64,000 nt of DNA from an uncultured Candidatus Saccharibacteria bacterium (lineage in GTDB: Bacteria > Patescibacteriota > Saccharimonadia > Saccharimonadales > JAGQNJ01). The stretch covers positions 682 to 64,681 of the forward strand of contig CAZPVO010000003.1 in NCBI GenBank assembly GCA_964590205.1, in the 5' to 3' direction. Positions within the stretch are counted from its first letter, which is position 1; the number at the start of each line of letters is the position of its first letter. Positions 818 to 44,960 of the stretch are shown here, in pieces. Under the pieces are notes generated by a model that was not told the DNA's origin, did no database searches, and was given only the letters and a program-made list of their open reading frames with translations. The position numbers and the translations under genes were made by a program.

Positions 818-2302
818 CTATTGATCTGTTCGTAGGCTTGCTCGGGTAAGTGCAAACTTTGTCTTATCATTTTCTTGGGTGGAAATATTGTAGATAGCCG
901 TAAAATCGCGGTCGAATTGTGGTGTGCTGCCGCTGAGCGCACCATTGAGGGTTTGCAAATTGTTACCATCAAAATCAAACATGATAACTTGATTGTTACT
1001 AATTGCTACCAGACGATCCCCGTCCATCCATGAGGCTGGCTCATTCAGGTCAAATGGCTTATTGATACTGTAGCGATACTGGCGGTCTGTCTGCGCATCA
1101 TAAACAGCAAAAGTTTGGTTTTTACCTTGGGCCGAAATAAATTGAGCATTAGCCGAGAACAAAACCTTTTCAGGTGCGTCGACACGCAACGTTCGTGCAG
1201 GCAAATTTTGTTTTTGTTTTTCGTTTTGCAGAATGGTTATCGGATCTTCATAAATGTAGACCTGATTTTCACTTTGTGCACCAGCCACCACAAACCAATG
1301 ATTGTCGAAGCGTGCCAAGTCTAATAGGTATGGTGTTCCTACGGGTAATTCGCGTAAAACATGGTCGTCATTATTGTTCTTAAGACGAACATCGACCTTA
1401 CCAGGTGTAATTGTTGGATCGTTGGAAATATATTCAATCGTATCAGTGCCATGTGGCTTAAAATTAACGACGTGCGGCAGCAGTGGAGTTATATTTTTGT
1501 CTTTAATAACGCCTTGTTGCAGCAACCCGCCTGTCAGCAAAAAAACCTGGTCAGTCGACTTATTAAATAGGGCAACTTCGTCCGGAGTTTGGCTAAACTG
1601 TTGGTTGATATTCACACTTTCAGTCGGATTTACAAAGTTGAAAATAATAAATTCTTTTTTGCCATCAAAATCATGCTGCAGTAATAAATGGGTATTGTCG
1701 GTTGACCACTCTACAACTTTGAGTTGCTGATTAGCGCCAGGACTCAATACGCTTGCTGGAATAGTTGTAAGCGTGGAAGTTGGTTGCTTTTTACTAGCAT
1801 CAAAAACTTCAAACTGGTTAAAACCACCTGGCTTGAGTACTAGCACCCAATGTCGATCCGGACTGCCTGTAATAATTGCCGGAGCAGAGTTATAAGTCTG
1901 CGTATTCGTCGTTTTCAGTTGGTTCGGAATAAGCAGCGGATAATCCAGACGCACGACACTGCCACCATCGATTTCAAAACTTCGCTGCCAATTACGGTAG
2001 CCGTCTTTGCTGAGTGTTACGCTATATTTTGCCGCCTGCAAGGTTATACGGGCGTTGGTCGATGACTCTGGCAAATGTCCACCGTTTTGATCAGTTAAAT
2101 CAATCTTGGCTCCGCTCGGGCTTGATGCCAAAAATACTAAACCGTTTTGAATAATTTTACCGGTGTGGCGATCGACACCATAACCAAAAGAACTATAAAG
2201 CACAATAATTGTGCACATAGTTATAGCAATGGCCATCAGCGCGTAGCCGATGTATAGGCGAATGGTATGAGCTCGTTTTTTGTGAGGGTCAAGAAAATCC
2301 AT
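818..2302 (-). CDS. membrane-anchored PEGA-domain protein
   Basis: N-terminal TM helix followed by a PEGA-like segment (SSPSGAKIDL...YSVTLSKDGYRNWQRSFEI). The rest is beta-rich and uncharacterised. Confidence 0.45.
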   Translation of the reverse strand: MDFLDPHKKRAHTIRLYIGYALMAIAITMCTIIVLYSSFGYGVDRHTGKIIQNGLVFLASSPSGAKIDLTDQNGGHLPESSTNARITLQAAKYSVTLSKDGYRNWQRSFEIDGGSVVRLDYPLLIPNQLKTTNTQTYNSAPAIITGSPDRHWVLVLKPGGFNQFEVFDASKKQPTSTLTTIPASVLSPGANQQLKVVEWSTDNTHLLLQHDFDGKKEFIIFNFVNPTESVNINQQFSQTPDEVALFNKSTDQVFLLTGGLLQQGVIKDKNITPLLPHVVNFKPHGTDTIEYISNDPTITPGKVDVRLKNNNDDHVLRELPVGTPYLLDLARFDNHWFVVAGAQSENQVYIYEDPITILQNEKQKQNLPARTLRVDAPEKVLFSANAQFISAQGKNQTFAVYDAQTDRQYRYSINKPFDLNEPASWMDGDRLVAISNNQVIMFDFDGNNLQTLNGALSGSTPQFDRDFTAIYNISTQENDKTKFALTRASLRTDQ

Positions 2303-2443: not shown

Positions 2444-3547
2444 GTGAGTGATCACAAAAACGTCATTGAACTAAATGGAAAGCTATATGATAGCGTAAGC
2501 GGTCATATGGTGGGCAACAAAGGCAACGCCGGGCCAACGGTAATTAAGCCTGGTACGGCCGTTGATGGATTTGTGAGAAGTGCTCCCGTAAAAGAGCCTA
2601 AGGCCCATCACACACAAACCGCACCAAAACCAATCCACGTGCAAGCTCCAACTCATCACAATAAAGCACATAAAGCAGCCAAGAGCATTGCTGCTCATAC
2701 GCAACATCACTCCAAAACCTTAGTTCGCCGGGGTCTTAAGAAACCGATCGCCGAACGTCCTGAAGAATCTGAAGTTTACACTAAAGGCACACCTCAACCA
2801 GAACGACTGGCTCGGGCCAAATCAACACCACAGAGTCCTCATATATCAAGGTTCGGTCTGCCGAGCGCAGCCACTTTTCAAGTAACCAAAAAAACAACTC
2901 ATATGCCTGTTAAACATTCGCCGAATCAATTAAAAGCCCGCGCCGCGATTCAGCAGGCATCGGTGCCAATTGCCAGCCAAAATCAAATACTAAAAGAGCA
3001 GATGGTTTCCAAAGCACTTAACGATGCGCGTGTTGATGAAGTGCCGCATAAAAAGGCAAAAAAGCACAACACCGCTCGTAGACTTGGTGTTAGTCCAAAA
3101 GTTGTTCATTTTGGCGCTGCAACTCTAGCAGCTGTTTTGCTATTCGGCTTTATTGCATATCAAAATGCACCGAATATTAGCATGAAGATTGCTGCATCTA
3201 AAGCTGGTATTAGCGCCGTTTTGCCATCATACAAACCAGCTGGTTTTGGCTTGAGCGGACCTATTGAATACGGCCCAGGTCAGATAACATTGAATTTCAA
3301 GTCTCACACCGACAATCGTAATTTCCATATTACTCAACGCGCTTCTGATTGGAATAGCGAAGCATTGCTCAGTAATTTTGTCTCAACTAACAGCAAATCT
3401 TACCAAACAGTACAGGACAAAGGCCGTACTATTTATATTTACGATGGCACGAATGCAACCTGGGTGAGCGGTGGCGTGTGGTATCAAATTGAAGGTAATT
3501 CTTCCTTAAGCTCTGAACAATTAGTCAAGCTCGCTGGCAGTATCTGA
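2444..3547 (+). CDS. membrane-anchored protein with DUF4367-like C-terminal domain
   Basis: GTG start. His/Lys/Pro-rich N-terminus, one TM helix, and a C-terminus (GRTIYIYDGTNATWVSGGVWYQIEGNSSLSSEQLVKLAGSI) that resembles the DUF4367 pattern. Confidence 0.4.
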   Translation: MSDHKNVIELNGKLYDSVSGHMVGNKGNAGPTVIKPGTAVDGFVRSAPVKEPKAHHTQTAPKPIHVQAPTHHNKAHKAAKSIAAHTQHHSKTLVRRGLKKPIAERPEESEVYTKGTPQPERLARAKSTPQSPHISRFGLPSAATFQVTKKTTHMPVKHSPNQLKARAAIQQASVPIASQNQILKEQMVSKALNDARVDEVPHKKAKKHNTARRLGVSPKVVHFGAATLAAVLLFGFIAYQNAPNISMKIAASKAGISAVLPSYKPAGFGLSGPIEYGPGQITLNFKSHTDNRNFHITQRASDWNSEALLSNFVSTNSKSYQTVQDKGRTIYIYDGTNATWVSGGVWYQIEGNSSLSSEQLVKLAGSI

Positions 3548-6435: not shown

Positions 6436-7971
6436 TTGAATAATCTCAAGAAACTTCAGAACCAGATACAGCAGCAAGTCTTATTAGTTCTGGCTGGAGT
6501 TAATATTTTAGTCGTATTAGCTGTTCTAATACTTATTTATTTCTTGAAATTACACATATTGATCGTGGCAGCACTCGCGCTAATAGCCGTAGCAGCTTCA
6601 TCATTTTTAGCGGCGCGCTGGGCAGCTCGATTTAGCACAGAGCCAATCGAGAAACTTTCTCAGGCGATTGTCCACGTATTGCCGGAGCATCAGGGAAGTC
6701 CAGCACCAGATTTAGACCATCTTAAGGTTGGTCGCGAACTTGTAACGACTATGGCGTTGCAGGTTTATCAATTGGGTAGCTCCTCGCAAACAAAAAGTGC
6801 ACCTAAACCTACCCAAACTGATAACCGTAGTCAGAGCGTGCTTAATAATTTGCCGATGCCAGTAATTGTGCTAGATCAGAACCAAGTTGTAATTTACGCC
6901 AACACTTCAACGGCTGCCTGCTTGCAACTACCAATAAACGAAGTGATCGGCAAGGATATGTACTCATTATTTGATTTGGCGTTTCCAAATGACCAAACCT
7001 TTGACAGTTGGTTAACACAATGTCGTAAAGATAAGCTGACGGCCACCATGAACTGGGAACGCGTACGCCTGCAAACCGCTGGCCAAAAAGTTCGTCACCA
7101 GTTCGATATGGTCGCTTATTACAATAAGAACAACCCGAATAATGTGGAAACAATCATTGGGCTCTTTGATCAAACCGAAAAATATAAACAAGACGACAGT
7201 GGTGTTGGCTTCATTGCGCTGGCAGTGCATGAACTTCGCACGCCACTCACCATGCTGCGCGGCTACATTGAAGTACTTGAGGAAGAATTGCGAGGCAAAC
7301 TGGACCCCGAACTCAACGGTTATTTACAAAAAATGCAGGTAGCTTCTCAACAGTTGGCTAATTTTGTCACCAACATTTTAAATGTCGCACGTGTTGAAGA
7401 AAATCAGCTATTTCTACAACTAAAAGAAGAAAAATGGGATAGCTTGCTACGCGATACATTAAAAGAAATGAGTTTGCGTGCGCAGGTGCACCACAAGCAA
7501 ATCGTACTGCAAGTGCAGCCGGATTTGCCAAATGTAGCGGTTGATCCCATCACTATTACTGAAGTTATCATCAATCTCGTCGACAATGCCATTAAGTACA
7601 GCGGCAGTGGCAATAAAATCATCGTAAAAACTTATATGAATAACGAAGGTTTTGTTGAAACCACCGTGCAGGATTTTGGTGTTGGCATTCCAACCAATGC
7701 TCTCGGCAATCTGTTCGAAAAATTTTATCGCAGTTATCACAGCAAATCACACGTTGGTGGCACCGGCCTAGGCTTATATTTGAGTAAATCAATCGTAGGT
7801 GCGCACAATGGACAGATCTGGGTCAAGTCTAAAGAAGGCGAGGGCAGCACGTTTGGTTTCACGCTCGTACCTTATGCAAAACTTGCCGAAGACCTTAAAA
7901 AACCTGATAATAACGATGTCACCCGTATAGCGCACGGCTGGATTAAAAATCACTCATTCTATAGGAGATAA
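6436..7971 (+). CDS. sensor histidine kinase (TM + PAS-like + HisKA + HATPase)
   Basis: TTG start. H-box AVHELRTPLTMLRGY, N-box LVDNAIKYS and G2 box GGTGLGLYLSKSIV. Confidence 0.88.
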   Translation: MNNLKKLQNQIQQQVLLVLAGVNILVVLAVLILIYFLKLHILIVAALALIAVAASSFLAARWAARFSTEPIEKLSQAIVHVLPEHQGSPAPDLDHLKVGRELVTTMALQVYQLGSSSQTKSAPKPTQTDNRSQSVLNNLPMPVIVLDQNQVVIYANTSTAACLQLPINEVIGKDMYSLFDLAFPNDQTFDSWLTQCRKDKLTATMNWERVRLQTAGQKVRHQFDMVAYYNKNNPNNVETIIGLFDQTEKYKQDDSGVGFIALAVHELRTPLTMLRGYIEVLEEELRGKLDPELNGYLQKMQVASQQLANFVTNILNVARVEENQLFLQLKEEKWDSLLRDTLKEMSLRAQVHHKQIVLQVQPDLPNVAVDPITITEVIINLVDNAIKYSGSGNKIIVKTYMNNEGFVETTVQDFGVGIPTNALGNLFEKFYRSYHSKSHVGGTGLGLYLSKSIVGAHNGQIWVKSKEGEGSTFGFTLVPYAKLAEDLKKPDNNDVTRIAHGWIKNHSFYRR

Positions 7972-14636: not shown

Positions 14637-15302
14637 ATGCGTTTAAACCAATTTATTGCCCATGCGACTGGCTTGTCACGTCGCAGCGCTGACAAAGCAA
14701 TTGAAGCGGGTAGTGTTGCCGTAAACGGACAACCTGCAAGTTTAGGTCAACAAGTGAGCGAAAAAGACGAAGTGACCTACAAAGGCCAACCCGTGAGTAT
14801 TGGCAAGACTGTGACGATTATGCTTAACAAACCGGTCGGCTATGTTTGCTCGCGTGACGGGCAGGGTAGCCAAACAGTTTATGATCTGTTGCCGGCCGAA
14901 TTTCAAAGCCTAAAACCGGTCGGGCGGCTCGACAAAGATTCTTCCGGGTTATTACTATTAACAAACGATGGCAAACTTGCGAACGAGCTCACACACCCGA
15001 GCTTTGCCAAAGAAAAAGTTTACGAGGTCGAGCTCAATAAAAATCTGTCCGAGACTGACCAAAAAGCTATCCAGCAGGGGGTTGAACTCGAAGATGGCAT
15101 CAGTAAACTAAAACTTACCGGCGCTGACAAACAGTGGACAGTCCGAATGAGTGAAGGACGAAACCGCCAAATCCGTCGCACGTTCGAAAAACTCGGTTAT
15201 AGAGTGGATAAACTCCACCGCACAAATTTCGGGGATTACTCGCTCTCCGGAGTATCTTCAGGTAACTTTACACAAGCAACGATTGTGTCAATTAAATCAT
15301 GA
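14637..15302 (+). CDS. pseudouridine synthase, RsuA/RluB family (S4 + PSU domains)
   Basis: S4-like N-terminus MRLNQFIAHATGLSRRSADKAI and catalytic GRLDKDSSGLLLLTNDG. Confidence 0.85.
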   Translation: MRLNQFIAHATGLSRRSADKAIEAGSVAVNGQPASLGQQVSEKDEVTYKGQPVSIGKTVTIMLNKPVGYVCSRDGQGSQTVYDLLPAEFQSLKPVGRLDKDSSGLLLLTNDGKLANELTHPSFAKEKVYEVELNKNLSETDQKAIQQGVELEDGISKLKLTGADKQWTVRMSEGRNRQIRRTFEKLGYRVDKLHRTNFGDYSLSGVSSGNFTQATIVSIKS

Positions 15303-16054
15303 GTTCTAGCCAAACGGGCTGCTTGTTCAGCTCGCTGTCTGTTCTCGCCGGTCACTCTATCAATTTCTGATTGCTCAGCTGAAAGAATAAGCTCGTGTAG
15401 TGCTTTTCGAGCACCAGCAATTCTACCATCTAACTCCTCTTGAGGGGTACGGCCTTGAAGTGCTTCTAACTCCTGTTTGGCGTCGGCAAGATCCCTTCGT
15501 ACATAACTACTGTCTTTACCGACTCTATTAGTAACTTTGATTTTGATTAAATCTTCCGGTCTATTTTTCGGCTGCCACTCATGAATTGCATTATCGACTA
15601 TCTTCATTCGAGCTAGCTCTTGCTGCAAGTGAAGTACTGTTCGTTCGAGCAAACTTACTTCGCGCTCGTAGTGTCTGGTTGCAAACTCGGTGCGATCTTC
15701 TGGCCCCATTGCATCAACCGCAGCAAGTCCATATTCAAGACTCTCGGCACTAACATTATGGTAAGTGAGTGACTTCCAGATAATTTGATCTTCATCTTGC
15801 TCAACACTAAGTTCAACAGTATGTGCATTCGCTCTTTCTGCAGTTGGGTTATACGCTAGTGTTCCTAGATGCTCAAGAATTAATTCGGCATCAACATCAA
15901 CAACGGAAGTAGAGTTGTGCATAACTTCAATTGCACCTGCCAAAACAATATCAGCAGGGGTAATCTCAGCACCGCGAGCATACGCCGTCAAGTATGGCGA
16001 GATCCAAACATCTTGCCGCTCAACTCGCTCAAAAGTTTCTGAAGTATCAGACAT
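15236..16054 (-). CDS. hypothetical acidic protein with coiled-coil C-terminal half
   Basis: Long ORF with protein-like composition and no recognisable motif. Its 3' end overlaps the pseudouridine synthase gene by 67 nt. Confidence 0.5.
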   Translation of the reverse strand: MSDTSETFERVERQDVWISPYLTAYARGAEITPADIVLAGAIEVMHNSTSVVDVDAELILEHLGTLAYNPTAERANAHTVELSVEQDEDQIIWKSLTYHNVSAESLEYGLAAVDAMGPEDRTEFATRHYEREVSLLERTVLHLQQELARMKIVDNAIHEWQPKNRPEDLIKIKVTNRVGKDSSYVRRDLADAKQELEALQGRTPQEELDGRIAGARKALHELILSAEQSEIDRVTGENRQRAEQAARLARTHDLIDTIVACVKLPEDTPESE

Positions 16055-20186: not shown

Positions 20187-20876
20187 TTATGCTGCTAAAT
20201 CATAACCCGTATGAATAGAATCGATCATGAAATCCATACAAAATAGAATTCTATTTTCGGCGCCTGCGCCACAGTGACGAGTTTGAGGTAGTCCAACTTG
20301 CTCCCCATTACATAACGCAATAGCTTGACGCACAAACAGTACGTCGCCAGGTCCGTAACTAGTAAGAAATTCAGGCATGATGCTTGCTTCACCTGTAAGT
20401 GTCTTTTCAGACAAAACAAATTTTTGATTTTTGTCATCTGTTGGTGAAGCTGCGAAGAGCGCCTCTCCACCGCAAGTAGGCACAATAACTGTAATGCCGC
20501 GTCGTGCCACCTCATCAAGATGTCCTTTGACTTCTTCTTCTGGCTCAAGATAAATACTATTAAATTTGAGTGCGATACGCGCAGCCTCGTTTTCAGGCGT
20601 AAAGAGTAGGTCCTTTACAACATGAAGTTCTGGAGCCCATGTCATCGCATCTGCTTCCGCATGATGAGGTAGGGTTCCATTATTAGCCTTATTAGTAGTG
20701 AGACTCAGCACACCAGTTTTTTTCAATTCGTGAGCTGGTCGCACATTTTTATAAAGCCGCTTTGCCGACATTTCTGAGACAAAACTGCTTACTTTTGCTA
20801 CGCCATCATTAATACAAGCCTCTAGTACTTCAGGACTAGGTTCAGCGAAAGTTTGAACAGACTTTACGTAATTCAT
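20187..20876 (-). CDS. hypothetical protein (weak HxD...H hint of a non-haem Fe oxygenase fold)
   Basis: Clean 229-aa ORF. The only hints are GHLDE and a distal TRHCG. The function call is speculative. Confidence 0.35.
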   Translation of the reverse strand: MNYVKSVQTFAEPSPEVLEACINDGVAKVSSFVSEMSAKRLYKNVRPAHELKKTGVLSLTTNKANNGTLPHHAEADAMTWAPELHVVKDLLFTPENEAARIALKFNSIYLEPEEEVKGHLDEVARRGITVIVPTCGGEALFAASPTDDKNQKFVLSEKTLTGEASIMPEFLTSYGPGDVLFVRQAIALCNGEQVGLPQTRHCGAGAENRILFCMDFMIDSIHTGYDLAA

Positions 20877-20894
20877 CGGCTCATTTTACTCTTA

Positions 20895-20917
20895 AAACAA
20901 AATAGACTTCCAGAGGG
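20895..20917 (+). repeat. direct repeat copy 1 (AAACAAAATAGACTTCCAGAGGG)
   Basis: Perfect 23-nt match to 20977-20999. Confidence 0.9.
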
Positions 20918-20976
20918 CGGAAAGGTCCAGTGGAGCTTTCCGTAGACACGAGCGAAGTGTCGCTCAAAAAGTCTCT

Positions 20977-20999
20977 AAACAAAATAGACTTCCAGAGGG
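20977..20999 (+). repeat. direct repeat copy 2 (AAACAAAATAGACTTCCAGAGGG)
   Basis: Perfect 23-nt match to 20895-20917. Its core pairs with 21011-21026. Confidence 0.9.
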
Positions 21000-21396
21000 G
21001 GTGGGCACCACTGGAAGTCTATTTTGGGGACGTCCACCTGGGACCTCCCGAAAATACACCCTTCAACCCACCACGAGCGAAGCATCAGAATCAAACTCCA
21101 CGTAAAGATCTGTGCCGAACAGTTGTTCATACTGGCGTACTCGCTGTTGAAAACCGGGTAGTTAAAGGGGTTAGTTTGTTTTAGAGCCTCGTTTGCACGG
21201 AGACTCAAAGTGGAGGGTAACAACTTTAAAGTCTATAACTCTAAAACAACCTAACGTTTTCACCACATGGGTGAAAGTTAGAATGGGGGATAAAGGTACG
21301 TAAGAAACCGCTTAAGCGGACTTACGAGTTGCAATTTTAGCAAAACAATGTCCTTATGTCAATACTAAAAAACATTTTTGTGATATATTAAAAAAG

Positions 21397-22251
21397 ATGA
21401 CAAAAAAGCATAAGCTAAAAGGGCTCGAAATCCCTGATTGTCTCCAAACAATTCCTTCGCCACCGAAGGAGTTGTTTATTTATGGAGAGTTGGCACCTCT
21501 GTTAGAAAAACCTCGTTTGGCAGTGGTTGGCAGTCGTAAAGTAACACCTTACGGTAAAGCAGTAACAGGGCAACTCACCAGGGAAGCAGCCGAAGCCGGA
21601 ATTGTCATTATAAGTGGGCTAGCCCTTGGTGTGGACAGTATTGCACATCAAGCCACATTATCTGCCAGTGGGCTCACCGTAGCCGTGCTGCCTTCGTCAA
21701 TTGAAAACATAGCGCCTAGAGCCCATATACCGCTTGCTCAGCGGATTTTAGAGCAAAATGGCGCTCTCGTAAGTGAATACCCTCAGGGCAGCGAGCCGAA
21801 CCGTGGAAACTTTATTAATCGTAATCGTATCGTGGCAGGCTTGAGCGATGCGGTACTCATCACCGAAGCCGCCGCCAACAGTGGCACCATGCACACCGCA
21901 AACTTTGCGCTTGAGCAAGGCAAACCAGTTCTTGTTGTACCAGGTAACATAACCAGCCCACAGAGCGCTGGCACCAATAATCTGCTTAAATCTGGCGCAA
22001 TACCAGTTACTGACGTCGAAGATATCTTTAGTGTGCTGGGCATTAATAAGAATAAAACAAGCCTCGTCATTAACGCTGCCAACGAGCAGGAATTTATTAT
22101 TCTTAGTCTGATTCAAGAGGGAACGAGCGATGGCCACGAGCTGCTGGCCAAGAGTGAACTCGACGCCGCCGTGTTTAATCAGACGCTCACCATGCTTGAA
22201 ATAACAGGGAAGATCAAAGCCCTCGGCAGCAACCACTGGGCAAAATTGTGA
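21397..22251 (+). CDS. dprA: DNA processing protein DprA (Smf)
   Basis: VVGSRKVTPYGKAVTGQLTREAAEAGIVIISGLALGVDSIAHQATL Rossmann-like DprA core. The dprA-topA adjacency is classic. Confidence 0.9.
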   Translation: MTKKHKLKGLEIPDCLQTIPSPPKELFIYGELAPLLEKPRLAVVGSRKVTPYGKAVTGQLTREAAEAGIVIISGLALGVDSIAHQATLSASGLTVAVLPSSIENIAPRAHIPLAQRILEQNGALVSEYPQGSEPNRGNFINRNRIVAGLSDAVLITEAAANSGTMHTANFALEQGKPVLVVPGNITSPQSAGTNNLLKSGAIPVTDVEDIFSVLGINKNKTSLVINAANEQEFIILSLIQEGTSDGHELLAKSELDAAVFNQTLTMLEITGKIKALGSNHWAKL

Positions 22252-44106: not shown

Positions 44107-44960
44107 TTAGTTTTTGATCATGACAGCAGAGATAAGCACCAGTATCGAGGCAGCGATCTTGCGCCACACATGGGATCGTTCTTTGAGCAAGAAGTAACTG
44201 AGCACAACTGTCACGACAACTTGCGCAGTTAGTAGCATGGCAACCCGCGCTGGTTCTGGAGCGTGCTTGTAGGCATAGTACGCAAACAAGAATTTAGGAC
44301 GCTTGGAATAGCTGTAAGTAACGGGATCTTAATAATCACCGCTTTGTCGGTCACTTTTTTAAGGTCACCGACGACTTGACGGAATTTTACAATCAACACA
44401 GTAAGTGCTGCCCCACCATAAGCTGTTACTAAATAAGTTGCGGCAGTAACTTGTTTTGACAGTTCGCCACTGGACAACTGAAAGATGGCAAATATAAACG
44501 CGGCGACAATCATGAGCATAACCCCTCGCCGATGTAATTCAATCTTACCTGTCGTCACGCTGATGATCGCGAGTAACAATAAGATGATGCCAACAAAATT
44601 TATGAAGCTGAGGTGCAAATTTAGAAAAGTCATAGCCAGCACCGTGTTAAAAACAAGAACAGAAGAAAACGCAATCTGAGCCGTTGAATTTGTTAAGTCT
44701 TTTAGAGCGGCAAAGTAGAAAATATTTCCCAAGCCTTGGCTAACAACAACCAATAATACGGTTGTCACGTCCACATTGCCTGTAAAGTGAATTCCTCCTA
44801 AGAATGGTGCAGCTAAAAGTGATATAAACATACCTGCAAGCGGCAGCAAAAAACCTTTGGTATACGCCGAGACGTCCAATTTGTTCGAAAGAACTTTGGT
44901 CATAATGCCATAAATTGCCCGAGCAACAACGGCAATAGCAGTAAAAAATAACCAGTTCAT
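44107..44960 (-). pseudogene. EamA/DMT family transporter, interrupted by a frameshift
   Basis: ORF 44229..44960 carries the N-terminal DMT repeats. ORF 44107..44289, in another frame, carries a typical DMT C-terminus (FAYYAYKHAPEPARVAMLLTAQVVVTVVLSYFLLKE). The frames meet at CCTAAATTC near 44290-44298. Confidence 0.6.

Follow-up and report, generated by a model that had tools for sequence, protein, structure and literature searches.

A probable new family of large structured RNA encoded on the minus strand upstream of dprA in Saccharibacteria

Saccharibacteria are ultrasmall parasitic bacteria with genomes under 1 Mb and very little non-coding DNA. An intergenic stretch of about 520 bp lying 5' of dprA raises the question of what it encodes, on which strand and with what function. 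The stretch belongs to the window, that is, the 64,000 nucleotides of an uncultured Candidatus Saccharibacteria bacterium that were analysed. A preliminary description, made from the letters alone, had regarded it (20877-21396) as a probable unclassified structured RNA and as the second-longest gap of the window. That it is one of the longest gaps is plausible, since the other large ORF-free stretches checked hold smaller ORFs.

The locus, its strand and its distribution

When folding energy was compared with that of shuffled sequences, the stretch gave a z score of -5.4 on the plus strand and -6.1 on the minus strand. The direct repeat reported in the preliminary description was recovered as 28 nt at 93% identity, of which 23 nt are perfect (20890-20917 and 20972-20999). 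Its core is complementary to an antiparallel partner at 21008-21026 over 19 nt at 95%, and the 19-mer of this core has three copies in the window against 0.01 expected. In the same way, the recurrence of CACGAGCGAAG (20947 and 21072), the 17-nt inverted repeat (21170-21186/21239-21255) and the minor helices (20918-20942, 20945-20961, 21027-21049, 21251-21281 and 21299-21326) were all found as described. The two ORFs of 84 and 82 aa are indeed not protein-like and have no Pfam match. Moreover, the distances between conserved blocks in homologues are spread evenly over 0, 1 and 2 modulo three, which argues for a non-coding region, and a protein-coding reading was dropped on these grounds. Judged from its sequence, the stretch is a genuine structured-RNA gene that is carried on the minus strand, and its repeats and hairpins are real.

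The preliminary description had placed the RNA on the plus strand, but three kinds of signal indicate the minus strand. The first is the frequency of G·U pairs in the helices described below, whose plus-strand equivalents would be A·C. H5 has U·G in 49 of 52 sequences, P7 has G·U in 41 of 52, and the closing pair of P1 is U·G in 28 of 44. The second is a conserved promoter (21334..21362, minus strand), composed of a TTGACA -35 box (21362..21357), a 17-nt spacer and an extended -10 TGcTAAAAT (21342..21334), that scored 11 out of 12 plus the TG in a promoter scan. TTGACA was present in 117 of 135 homologues, the 17-nt spacer in 115 of 135 and TGnTAnnnT throughout, and the alignment A1 columns of the promoter strings GTCAATAC and ATTTTAGCA are invariant or nearly so. 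The third is the 3'-terminal T hairpin with its U-rich tail AUUUUGUUUAGAG (20972..20984, minus strand), which lies past and partly inside the stem and makes the hairpin terminator-like. The plus-strand A-run that matches this tail is conserved, and columns 553-560 of alignment A2 are T-rich. A terminator scan did not call the T hairpin because its loop limit was 8 nt. Nevertheless, the hairpin and its U tail should end transcription.

A promoter and a terminator-like end thus lie on the same strand as the supported pairs, as expected of a structured non-coding RNA, and by these signals the RNA gene is on the minus strand and diverges from dprA. The 5' end is predicted about 7 nt past the -10 box and the 3' end within the U-rich tail, giving a predicted transcript of about 355 nt (~20975..21327, minus strand). 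On the other side, a putative extended -10 TGATATATT (21381..21389, plus strand) precedes the dprA start codon (ATG 21397), so that the dprA promoter would stand back to back with that of the RNA and the dprA mRNA would be leaderless. Another plus-strand extended -10, TGTTAGAAT, located inside the RNA gene, was discarded as the dprA promoter because its TG is missing in the window and dprA has its own -10 adjoining the ATG. A -10-like box 6-9 nt 5' of the ATG is found in many genes of the window.

Of 27 Saccharibacteria loci whose sequence extends beyond the start of dprA, 26 have a homologue, at a constant position in the order der-pth-(variable)-RNA-dprA-topA. In these 26 genomes, the stretch ~20972-21379 is conserved upstream of dprA (nhmmer E 3e-74 to ~1e-10), while their DprA proteins are only 49-66% identical and their left-hand neighbours differ. 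A 23-base pattern taken from this stretch matched at least 120 metagenome contigs; loci L046-L165 derive from soil and rhizosphere samples. Altogether, 135 full copies were collected, 129 of them unique, with a single copy at each locus, and an nhmmer profile of the 129 homologues returned one match in the window (21337..20971, minus strand, E=9.8e-69). In a more divergent Saccharibacterium (L033, DprA 44% identical), no copy of the RNA was found beside dprA. In a search of DprA homologues for cultured oral Saccharibacteria, all of the 120 matches listed were environmental relatives at least 57% identical.

Predicted architecture and covariation

The aligned sequences argue strongly for a fold composed of a P1 hairpin, a P3-closed domain (12-19 bp) that presents P4, a second domain closed by H5 and a capped hairpin at the 3' end. 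Invariant blocks and variable hairpins take turns along the RNA, and insertions occur only at hairpin tips. All the elements that follow are on the minus strand. The P1 hairpin (21299..21326) pairs CGUAAG with CUUACG, contains an inner CCGC/GCGG helix and a variable tip, V1, and shows double changes at three of six pairs. It is followed by R2 (21285..21297), a conserved single-stranded C-rich block ACCUUUAUCCCCC (family consensus ACCUUAUACCCCC) that is nearly invariant in alignments A1 and A2 and unpaired in the consensus fold.

P2 (21250..21282) pairs UCUAAC with GUUAGG and closes the variable hairpin V2 (UUUCACC/GGUGAAA); alternatively, its GUUAG extends P3. The preliminary description had noticed that CTAAC/GTTAG at 21251-21255 could join either of two helices. 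This ambiguity is real and conserved, but covariation cannot choose between P2 and the P3 extension because UUCUAAC, GUUAG and CUAAC hardly vary; in the few sequences where they do, one of the two pairings is lost. P3 itself is formed by GUUAGGUUGUUUUAGAGUU (5' strand and extension, 21237..21255) and GGCUCUAAAACAAACUAAC (3' strand and extension, 21170..21188). Its 17 pairs are 99.8% paired, with GC<->AU, CG<->UA/AU and GC<->CG changes at three inner pairs; pair 91/157, for instance, is GC in 88 sequences, AU in 26 and GU in 14. One P3 strand, GUUUUAGAGC, had prompted the idea of a CRISPR/tracrRNA, which was rejected as no array or cas gene lies nearby. Within P3, the P4 hairpin (21201..21234) has a stem extension that covaries (double changes at four of seven pairs) and an invariant 11-nt loop UGUUACCCUCC (21222..21212), and AAGUUGUUACCCUCCACUU is invariant or nearly so across the 129 sequences.

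The long-range helix H5 joins CCCUUUAAC (21161..21169) to GUUGAAGGG (21059-21067) and is 99.8% paired. Its pair 182/306 is CG in 115 sequences, GC in 12 and AU in 2, and its pair 179/309 is UG in 116, UA in 11 and CG in 2. It encloses V5 (21076..21145), a variable multi-helix domain that holds P6 (AGCGA/UCGCU), two small hairpins and P7 (GGCACAGA/UCUGAUGCU) and occurs as two subtypes across the family. Up to six pair types were observed at V5 pairs 224-228/294-298 and 259-268/282-293, and seven of the eight pairs of helix 6 show double changes. The nearly invariant G-rich block R6, GGUGGGUUGAAGGGUGU (21056..21072), has the 3' strand of H5 as its centre. Next comes V6 (21027..21049), a variable hairpin GGGAGGUCC/GGACGUCCC that is missing in about one third of the homologues and covaries at pairs 321-329/336-344 (e.g. 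GC 48, AU 30). Finally, the T hairpin (20980..21026) has a covarying outer stem, with double changes at 11 of 16 pairs and 94% pairing, and an invariant cap, G(C/U)GGUGCCCACCCCCUCU (21011..20994), made of an irregular inner helix and the hexaloop CCCACC. Two further contacts were considered and rejected. A pseudoknot between CCCACC in the cap loop and GGUGGG in R6 shows no covariation, and three homologues (L113, L063 and L051) lose GGUGGG while keeping the loop unchanged; a helix between R2 and the 3' end of R6 shows no covariation either.

Eight helices are backed by compensatory changes, with 340 double-change cells against 118 in shuffles (0/500). In the 72-pair model, both-sided changes occur at 38 of the 72 pairs, and pairing holds in 87.2% of cells where shuffles give 78.6% (0/500). 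This percentage is inflated because the structure was partly derived from the same MAFFT-based alignments. The slid-partner and shuffle controls nevertheless remain far under the observed values, and the covariation score, likewise reached in 0/500 shuffles, is 0.255 against 0.04-0.07 (maximum 0.074) for slid partners. In parallel, RNAalifold predicted 42 pairs from 52 sequences, 20 of them with compensatory changes. Nearly all of the highest mutual-information column pairs belong to the nested model, and in one mutual-information ranking the strongest pairs all fall in the T hairpin. The RNA is therefore conserved across species with compensatory substitutions, as structured non-coding RNAs are.

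Comparison with known families, as advised in the preliminary description, was conducted with Rfam 15. At the gathering score, no match was found in the window or in 16 relatives; at E<=10, nothing recurrent appeared in 20800-21450 or in 20 further homologues. This negative result covers the window and 36 homologous loci in total and includes RNase P, tmRNA, SRP, 6S and the ornate RNAs. A description of the RNA family was not found in the literature, and a transcriptome paper on TM7x reports no validated small RNAs. With helices that are conserved and covary in relatives and no clean Rfam match, the initial view of an unclassified structured RNA, rather than decayed or repeat DNA, is borne out. 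The stretch very probably holds a minus-strand structured non-coding RNA gene of a new family, and there are strong grounds for regarding this RNA as single-copy, stand-alone and previously undescribed.

The duplicated arm and the viral cap hairpins

Module A (20890..20971, minus strand) lies outside the conserved RNA, nhmmer conservation beginning only at ~20972. It contains two hairpins (20961..20945 and 20942..20918) followed by a copy of the last ~23 nt of the RNA (20917..20895), made of CCCUCU, the 3' arm and U's, and it ends 13 nt short of a 229-aa ORF. Homologues of module A were observed at six loci (L048, L159, L006, L108, L150 and L114), and an analogous module B at about 13. Among the copies of modules A and B, about half have an identical arm, and in the others the arm is non-complementary. 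Just 3' of the gene, direct repeats of its last 17-26 nt accompany hypervariable cargo, with inserts of 55-190 bp.

The preliminary description had seen in the window a repeated arm competing for one partner. This view is not sustained: the distal copy is no part of the conserved RNA, only about 11 of 135 loci (~8%) have it, and in related modules the arm is often non-complementary. Since the distal arm belongs to an accessory module in only ~8% of loci, a conserved switch is unsupported, and the two alternative helices that a two-state riboswitch would keep are not both conserved in homologues. The extra arm of the window is best explained as a by-product of recurrent partial duplication of the 3' end of the gene and not as a regulatory switch. 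An integration-site model for the duplicated arm is also improbable: no integrase was found among 10 proteins of the variable cargo, and the viral copies are complete hairpins rather than att-like half-sites.

These viral copies concern the cap, GC-GGUGCCCACCCCCUC, which occurs once in the window and once per locus across 1.08 Mb of host loci. Its exact 15-mer was found in 74 distinct viral instances, of which 45 are flanked by complementary arms of their own (6-17 bp; control 2.4%), with stems unrelated to the host RNA; GC directly precedes the 15-mer in 50 of the 74, and a U tail is present in 14. Its contexts include the following two. In the first, the hairpin lies in the order portal, small ORF, hairpin, scaffold-like gene and major head protein; in the second, it occupies the slot between two tRNA genes. 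The upstream ORF is co-directional in roughly 26 of 37 instances inspected, as read by eye from a table, which points to an RNA-level element. One viral contig, L239, carries a full copy of the RNA beside phage genes and lacks dprA, pth and topA; among its neighbours are ORFs that, by eye, we take to be methylases and, for those of 310 and 644 aa, RecT-like and FtsK-like. A second viral scan with a core pattern found the full RNA in L239 only. Rfam gave no match to the known large RNAs sought in 14 viral loci; it returned tRNAs, one tRNA-like tmRNA match in a phage tRNA array and random hairpin-like matches. On balance, the cap is somewhat likely to be an autonomous recognition module.

Possible function and likeness to known RNAs

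Taken as a whole, the best explanation, which we hold with moderate confidence, is a single-copy gene for a stand-alone structured non-coding RNA of ~355 nt and of a new family. Such an RNA would most likely act in trans and be abundant, stable and probably a ribonucleoprotein component. Unpaired stretches that are invariant and for the most part rich in C (R2, the P4 loop and the cap) would serve as docking sites for a conserved partner in the cell, which could be a protein or a G-rich RNA. The cap hairpin would be an independent module with two roles, ending the transcript and binding this partner. Because the cap would bind the partner by itself, free-standing phage caps before capsid genes and in tRNA arrays could be explained. 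This trans-acting mode of action, suggested by the invariant unpaired segments and the phage copies, is tentative. The wider proposal is that of a new large-RNA class in the core genome of Saccharibacteria with a conserved partner, whose portable cap phages would have copied to tap or block this partner; it is a serious possibility that falls a little short of probable.

Other readings were weighed against this one. The RNA could be a base-pairing regulator like RNAIII, RsaE/RoxS or 6C, the loops ACCCUCC, CCCACC and ACCCCC pairing with G-rich or Shine-Dalgarno (SD)-like regions of mRNAs. Pairing seeded by C-rich loops is well established for Gram-positive small RNAs, and this precedent is in line with the three invariant unpaired C-rich segments, one of which carries an anti-SD core CCUCC, and with the stand-alone promoter and terminator. 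SD-type targets are however scarce, since only 11 of 55 window genes have an SD-like motif and many look leaderless; the idea of an anti-SD sponge was dropped for the same low SD usage. Moreover, invariance at ~50% DprA identity together with eight covarying helices exceeds what is typical of base-pairing small RNAs, so that this role is unlikely.

It is improbable that the RNA is phage-related or a self-assembling ornate RNA comparable to ROOL and GOLLD, or that it matters chiefly as an integration site with its 3' end as attB. The full copy in L239, the frequency of the cap in phage contigs including tRNA arrays, and the direct repeats with hypervariable cargo 3' of the gene speak for such readings. 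Nevertheless, at least 135 copies of the full RNA lie in conserved chromosomal synteny and only one in a viral contig, the inserts between repeats are short (55-190 bp), no integrase was found in the variable cargo examined, the ROOL and GOLLD models gave no match, and the phage hairpins are not att half-sites because each has its own complete stem.

A cis element (leader, riboswitch or antisense) for dprA or the 229-aa gene, the duplicated arm serving as terminator or antiterminator, has little probability. It would fit with the distal arm lying 13 nt upstream of the 229-aa ORF, where pairing with the T hairpin's 5' arm would be possible, and with a divergent dprA whose distance to the RNA promoter is 15-300 nt in 92 of the 107 loci with enough flank (86%). 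Yet about 12 loci retain the RNA without dprA, and the RNA is on the opposite strand to dprA and does not overlap it, as dprA appears leaderless with its own -10. The genes 3' of the RNA vary and are mostly convergent, and the distal arm has the sparse and often non-complementary distribution given above. In the same group of regulatory elements, a T-box leader had been considered from a plus-strand string, GGGGGTGGGCACCGC, that presumably resembles the T-box core; it was rejected since the string is at the wrong end and, by the G·U evidence, on the non-RNA strand, with no Rfam match.

It is very improbable that the gene encodes a housekeeping RNA (RNase P, tmRNA, 6S or SRP) so divergent that the Rfam models miss it. 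Like such RNAs, this one is ~350 nt long, single-copy, deeply conserved and under a strong promoter, and there is a precedent in CPR bacteria, since searches at default thresholds failed to find RNase P RNA in 10 of 35 circular CPR genomes (PMC8172020); in addition, one oral Saccharibacterium has only two PGAP-annotated ncRNAs (PMC8830319). For RNase P, RF00010 and RF00011 gave no match, scores of 5-15 bits, the level of divergent CPR sequences (PMC8172020), lying below the reporting range. The preliminary description had pointed to four RNase P-like strings, but these carry no weight because none falls in a conserved block: GGAAAGGTCC (20919) is in the non-conserved accessory module, AAACTCCAC and AACCGGGTAG are in the variable V5 and ACAATGTCCTTAT is in the promoter spacer. 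P4 strands of CR-I (GGAAAGUCC-like) and CR-V (ACAGAA..CCGGCUUA-like) type were not found in any invariant block, and a P4-type core is absent. The 5' and 3' ends are unpaired, each being a local hairpin, so there is no P1 or acceptor stem. For tmRNA, RF00023 gave no match and ARAGORN found only tRNA-Glu in the window; paired ends, a GGUUCGA-type T-loop in conserved blocks and a tag reading frame were not found. 6S and SRP had no Rfam match, and the consensus fold is multi-domain, lacking a rod with a central bubble or an SRP domain IV motif. Lastly, the probability is negligible that the stretch is non-functional, being decayed or repetitive DNA, or that it codes for two short proteins left unannotated. 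The repeats and the two mutually antisense ORFs of 82-84 aa could be invoked for these readings, but the compensatory changes, the insertions confined to tips, the block spacing and the lack of Pfam matches speak against them.

Newly found large and deeply conserved structured RNAs are rare. RNase P, tmRNA, SRP, 6S, OLE, raiA, ROOL and GOLLD each opened a line of biology. In the phylum of Saccharibacteria, no small or structured RNA is known to have been validated. An important function is implied for the RNA described here because ~400 bp with dozens of invariant positions are kept at ~50% DprA identity. For annotation, it is a candidate Rfam family that accounts for the conserved "gap" upstream of dprA. 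If the wider proposal of a new RNA class with a phage-copied cap is true, bacteria with minimal genomes would possess a cellular system centred on RNA that has escaped description, and their phages a strategy to counter it. The phage-borne caps offer a second, independent handle, as a 17-nt invariant RNA tip must have a reader. Some members of the phylum are reported to grow in culture and to be naturally transformable (PMC10633639), and deletion, complementation and pull-down would be feasible if such strains carry the gene.

Among known RNAs, RNase P RNA (type A/B and divergent CPR forms) is alike in length, strong conservation, multi-helix fold and the presence of a long-range helix, here H5. 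It has, however, a P4 pseudoknot core with CR-I/CR-V and P1 end pairing, which the RNA described here does not possess. The C-rich-loop small RNAs (RNAIII, RsaE/RoxS and 6C) share C-rich hairpin loops or linkers (CCUCC, CCCC) and an own promoter and terminator, but they are far less conserved and simpler in structure, and RNAIII is specific to staphylococci. The integration hot spots at tRNA and tmRNA genes resemble this gene by a re-copied 3' end (17-26 nt repeats), cargo just beyond and phage-borne pieces. Unlike at those att sites, no integrase was found here, the inserts are of 55-190 bp and the phage copies are whole hairpins instead of 3' half-sites.

The raiA motif, ROOL, GOLLD, OLE and HEARO RNAs were dropped as identities, Rfam giving no match in the window, the 16 relatives, the 20 further homologues and the 14 viral loci. 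They remain instructive as comparisons. OLE, ROOL and GOLLD are, like the present RNA, large and highly conserved, with complex folds and no assigned chemistry. ROOL and GOLLD are often associated with phages or tRNAs; here this association concerns the cap hairpin. The RNA described here is smaller than these three, and has a fixed chromosomal synteny rather than being prophage-borne. The raiA motif RNA of Bacillota and Actinomycetota is likewise a single-copy, stand-alone large non-coding RNA whose biochemical function is not established, and both RNAs combine many invariant unpaired nucleotides with covarying helices and lineage-specific variable substructures. Its family model comprises P1-P8, two pseudoknots and 51 conserved positions. 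Both have a competence gene as neighbour, comFC in 74% of raiA loci (PMC10861870) and dprA in 86% of the loci examined here. The raiA RNA measures ~200 nt against ~355 nt here, the helix plan and the phylum differ, and a cap embedded in the terminator is a feature of the saccharibacterial RNA only.

Conservation and gene context of the region upstream of dprA

The 520-bp interval lies between a 229-aa ORF (20187-20876, minus strand), for which a Pfam search gave no match, and dprA (21397-22251, plus strand), which is followed by topA. The repeats and hairpins listed there in the preliminary description are all present. A 19-nt repeat core occurs in three copies in the window (two direct, one inverted) against 0.01 expected, and the region folds far more stably than dinucleotide shuffles, with z = -5.4 on the plus strand and -6.1 on the minus strand.

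DprA relatives place the lineage of the window in the Saccharibacteria. Among 29 Saccharibacteria loci with DprA 49-66% identical, 27 include sequence upstream of dprA, and a stretch homologous to window positions ~20972-21379 was found in 26 of them (nhmmer E 3e-74 to ~1e-10). No homologue was found in a more distant Saccharibacterium (L033) or in non-CPR loci. In the alignment of relatives, invariant blocks of 10-26 nt alternate with insertions of widely varying length, which is a signature of structured RNA. A 23-base pattern built from two blocks matched at least 120 metagenome contigs, and at least 135 full-length copies were recovered, one per locus (129 unique among 135). The window itself contains a single profile match (21337..20971, minus strand, E = 9.8e-69). 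One metagenome contig, L149, carries two inverted full copies about 1.5 kb apart, at 2903-3313 (+) and 974-1381 (-); these may reflect a genuine inverted duplication or an error of assembly.

The gene order is der(engA), pth, 0-3.7 kb of variable genes, the RNA, dprA and topA, and the far-side genes beyond the RNA vary between genomes. A divergent dprA was observed immediately upstream of the RNA in 92 of the 107 loci having enough flank. About 12 loci keep the RNA without dprA there (L079, L085, L101, L105, L106, L112, L122, L129, L138, L142, L146, L152), so that its presence is independent of an adjacent dprA; in these loci, the distance from the RNA promoter to topA upstream of it is 140-1400 nt. 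Between pth and the RNA lies a hot spot of unrelated cargo, among it genes for a GDSL lipase, a sugar transferase and secreted Cys-rich proteins. Distant relatives of the 229-aa ORF (23-28% identity) occupy the same position and orientation in loci L084 and L106, directly downstream of the RNA.

Predicted fold, strand and known RNA families

In RNA orientation, the predicted fold opens with hairpin P1, followed by a single-stranded block R2 (ACCUUAUACCCCC), by P2 (UCUAAC/GUUAGA), which closes the variable hairpin V2, and by P3 (UUGUUUUAGAGCG/CGCUCUAAAACA), which encloses the variable hairpin V4 and the hairpin P4 with its invariant loop UGUUACCCUCC. A long-range helix, H5 (CCCUUUAAC/GUUGAAGGG), then surrounds the variable multi-helix domain V5 (P6, P7), of which the family has two subtypes. 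The G-rich block R6 (GGUGGGUUGAAGGGUGU), an optional hairpin V6 and the terminal T hairpin complete the model.

RNAalifold predicted 42 pairs from 52 sequences, 20 of them with compensatory changes. A 72-pair model was scored on the same alignment against 500 shuffles: 87.2% of cells were paired versus 78.6% in the shuffles, 340 versus 118 cells were changed on both sides, and the covariation score was 0.255 versus 0.043-0.074 for partners slid by 1-3 columns. None of the 500 shuffles reached the observed values on any measure. In a separate alignment of 129 sequences, the top mutual-information column pairs (at least 90% canonical) almost all belong to the nested model. Block-to-block distances are distributed evenly among the residues 0, 1 and 2 modulo 3, and there is therefore no conserved reading frame. 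It had also been proposed that CTAAC can join either of two helices, and both pairings are indeed possible: GUUAG (21255..21251) has two invariant CUAAC copies as potential partners, one giving P2 and the other an extension of P3, and covariation is indecisive between them. A pseudoknot between CCCACC of the T loop and GGUGGG of R6 was considered and is unsupported, three natural variants having lost GGUGGG with the loop unchanged.

The element had been read on the plus strand, a reading that was reversed by three features. A promoter scan identified a near-perfect sigma-70 promoter on the minus strand (21362..21334; TTGACA, 17 nt, TAAAAT with TG before it), and among 135 copies, 117 have TTGACA, 115 have the 17-nt spacer and all have TGnTAnnnT. 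At its 3' end the element has a hairpin and then a U-rich tail, which appears as a conserved A-run on the plus strand. Finally, G·U pairs are common in the covarying helices (U·G in H5 in 49 of 52 sequences, G·U in P7 in 41 of 52, U·G in P1 in 28 of 44); they would be A·C mismatches on the plus strand and thus place the RNA on the minus strand, in agreement with the other two signals. The predicted transcript of about 355 nt has its putative ends at ~21327 and ~20975 (minus strand), and lengths in the family range from ~300 to 650 nt. What these data show is a non-coding, base-paired element that is conserved, present in single copy and equipped with transcription signals on the minus strand.

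With Rfam 15, the whole 64 kb window gave tRNA-Glu alone at the gathering score and the 520-bp region gave nothing meaningful at E<=10. Likewise, 16 relative loci examined had no match, 20 further homologues showed no recurring family at E<=10, and ARAGORN found no tmRNA. RNase P architecture was checked as well, because CPR RNase P RNAs may score below Rfam thresholds (PMC8172020). The family is without CR-I/CR-V-like P4 strands and both its ends are local hairpins; the four RNase P-like strings that had prompted this lead, which proved wrong, lie at non-conserved positions. Features characteristic of tmRNA, 6S, SRP and T-box RNAs are absent from the family.

Literature searches returned no description of the RNA, and the TM7x transcriptome paper points out that validated small RNAs are lacking. 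The earlier suggestion of an unclassified structured RNA is borne out by helices that are conserved and covary and by the lack of a matching Rfam family. As far as Rfam 15 and the searchable literature extend, the RNA represents a new family.

Accessory modules at the 3' end

The first direct-repeat copy (20890-20917) lies outside the conserved RNA and closes an 82-nt unit, module A (20971..20890, minus strand), in which two hairpins are followed by a repeat of the last ~23 nt of the RNA (CCCUCU, the 3' arm and U's). Duplicates of the local 3' end like this one were observed in 11-12 of 135 loci, including tandem units of 83 nt in L150 and ~192 nt in L007. The intervening sequences group into two families, each conserved across genomes: family A in 7 loci, one of them the window, and family B in about 13 loci. 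The modules, each ending in such a duplicate, measure 55-190 bp (the window, L007, L150, L114, L048, L026, L046 and L086 among others). In about half of the cases the module arm matches the local T arm exactly; in others it is clearly not complementary to the 5' arm. This, together with the rarity of the duplicates, leaves the two-state switch that had been drawn from the repeated arm unsupported as a conserved feature. In our view the modules arose by recurrent events of partial duplication or recombination at the 3' end of the RNA gene, with slippage, recombination or miniature integrative elements as possible origins. An integrase-type att mechanism is possible, but the inserts are tiny and none of the 10 proteins scanned, from the variable cargo and its neighbours, was recognised as an integrase.

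The terminal hairpin in viral contigs and a proposed function

A scan of IMG/VR for the 15-mer GGTGCCCACCCCCTC of the cap, the invariant tip of the T hairpin, yielded 86 contigs representing 74 distinct instances. Complementary arms of their own (6-17 bp, all different) flank 45 of the 74, versus 2.4% in the control; GC precedes the 15-mer in 50, as in the RNA, and a U tail follows in 14. The position after CUC and the position before GC covary, lengthening the stem exactly as in the host RNA. Free-standing hairpins with the invariant tip GC-GGUGCCCACCCCCUC on unrelated, perfectly complementary stems are present in 45 distinct viral contigs among L167-L252 (for example L172:5817, L204:3564, L220:3038 and L199/L200). 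Often the hairpin is preceded by a portal-like or small ORF and followed by scaffold and major-head genes, one recurrent order being a portal-like gene, a small ORF, the hairpin, an acidic scaffold-like gene and the major head protein; in L199 and L200 the hairpin lies between two tRNA genes. The phage contig L174 (9128-9202 and 10205-12020) combines it with a 16-tRNA-gene array and a tRNA-like stretch of 75 nt that matches the tmRNA model. Host loci totalling 1.08 Mb contain the cap solely within the RNA, once per locus. The 3' hairpin thus forms an autonomous module, whose irregular invariant tip of 17 nt is used by the cellular RNA and, independently, by phages. No Rfam family covers the viral hairpins, and the motif common to the RNA and phages is new within the same limits of Rfam 15 and literature.

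Only one viral contig in the IMG/VR scans, L239 (38 kb), carries the complete RNA, with its promoter, at the contig end (7969-8378, +). Its neighbours are phage-type genes including two DNA methylases, without dprA, pth or topA; ORFs of 644 and 310 aa resemble FtsK and RecT, respectively, as judged by eye. A second, inverted cap hairpin lies 1.1 kb from the RNA (6863-6877, -). This copy could be phage-borne or at the edge of a provirus.

Taken together, the RNA would be a stable stand-alone molecule acting in trans, whose invariant unpaired segments may serve as contact surfaces for a conserved partner. The cap hairpin would both end transcription and bind this putative partner, a recognition that phages may exploit in turn. 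A live alternative is that the C-rich loops act by base pairing, as in RNAIII, RsaE or 6C; the degree of conservation is however unusual for such sRNAs, and SD usage is low in the window genome: among the start regions of its 55 window ORFs of 150 aa or longer (e.g. 3665, 5122, 11991, 15236-16054, 44229-44960, 57103), only 11 have an SD-like motif.

In many of these 55 ORFs, a TAnnnT -10-like box ends 6-9 nt before the ATG, and dprA is one of them, with the -10-like TGATATATT at 21381-21389 before its ATG at 21397. This sequence pattern suggests that leaderless mRNAs may be widespread.

Although homology with the present RNA is not detectable, the closest analogue in kind to the proposed trans-acting molecule is the raiA motif RNA, which is single-copy, trans-acting and abundant, of unknown chemistry, and usually adjoins the competence gene comFC.
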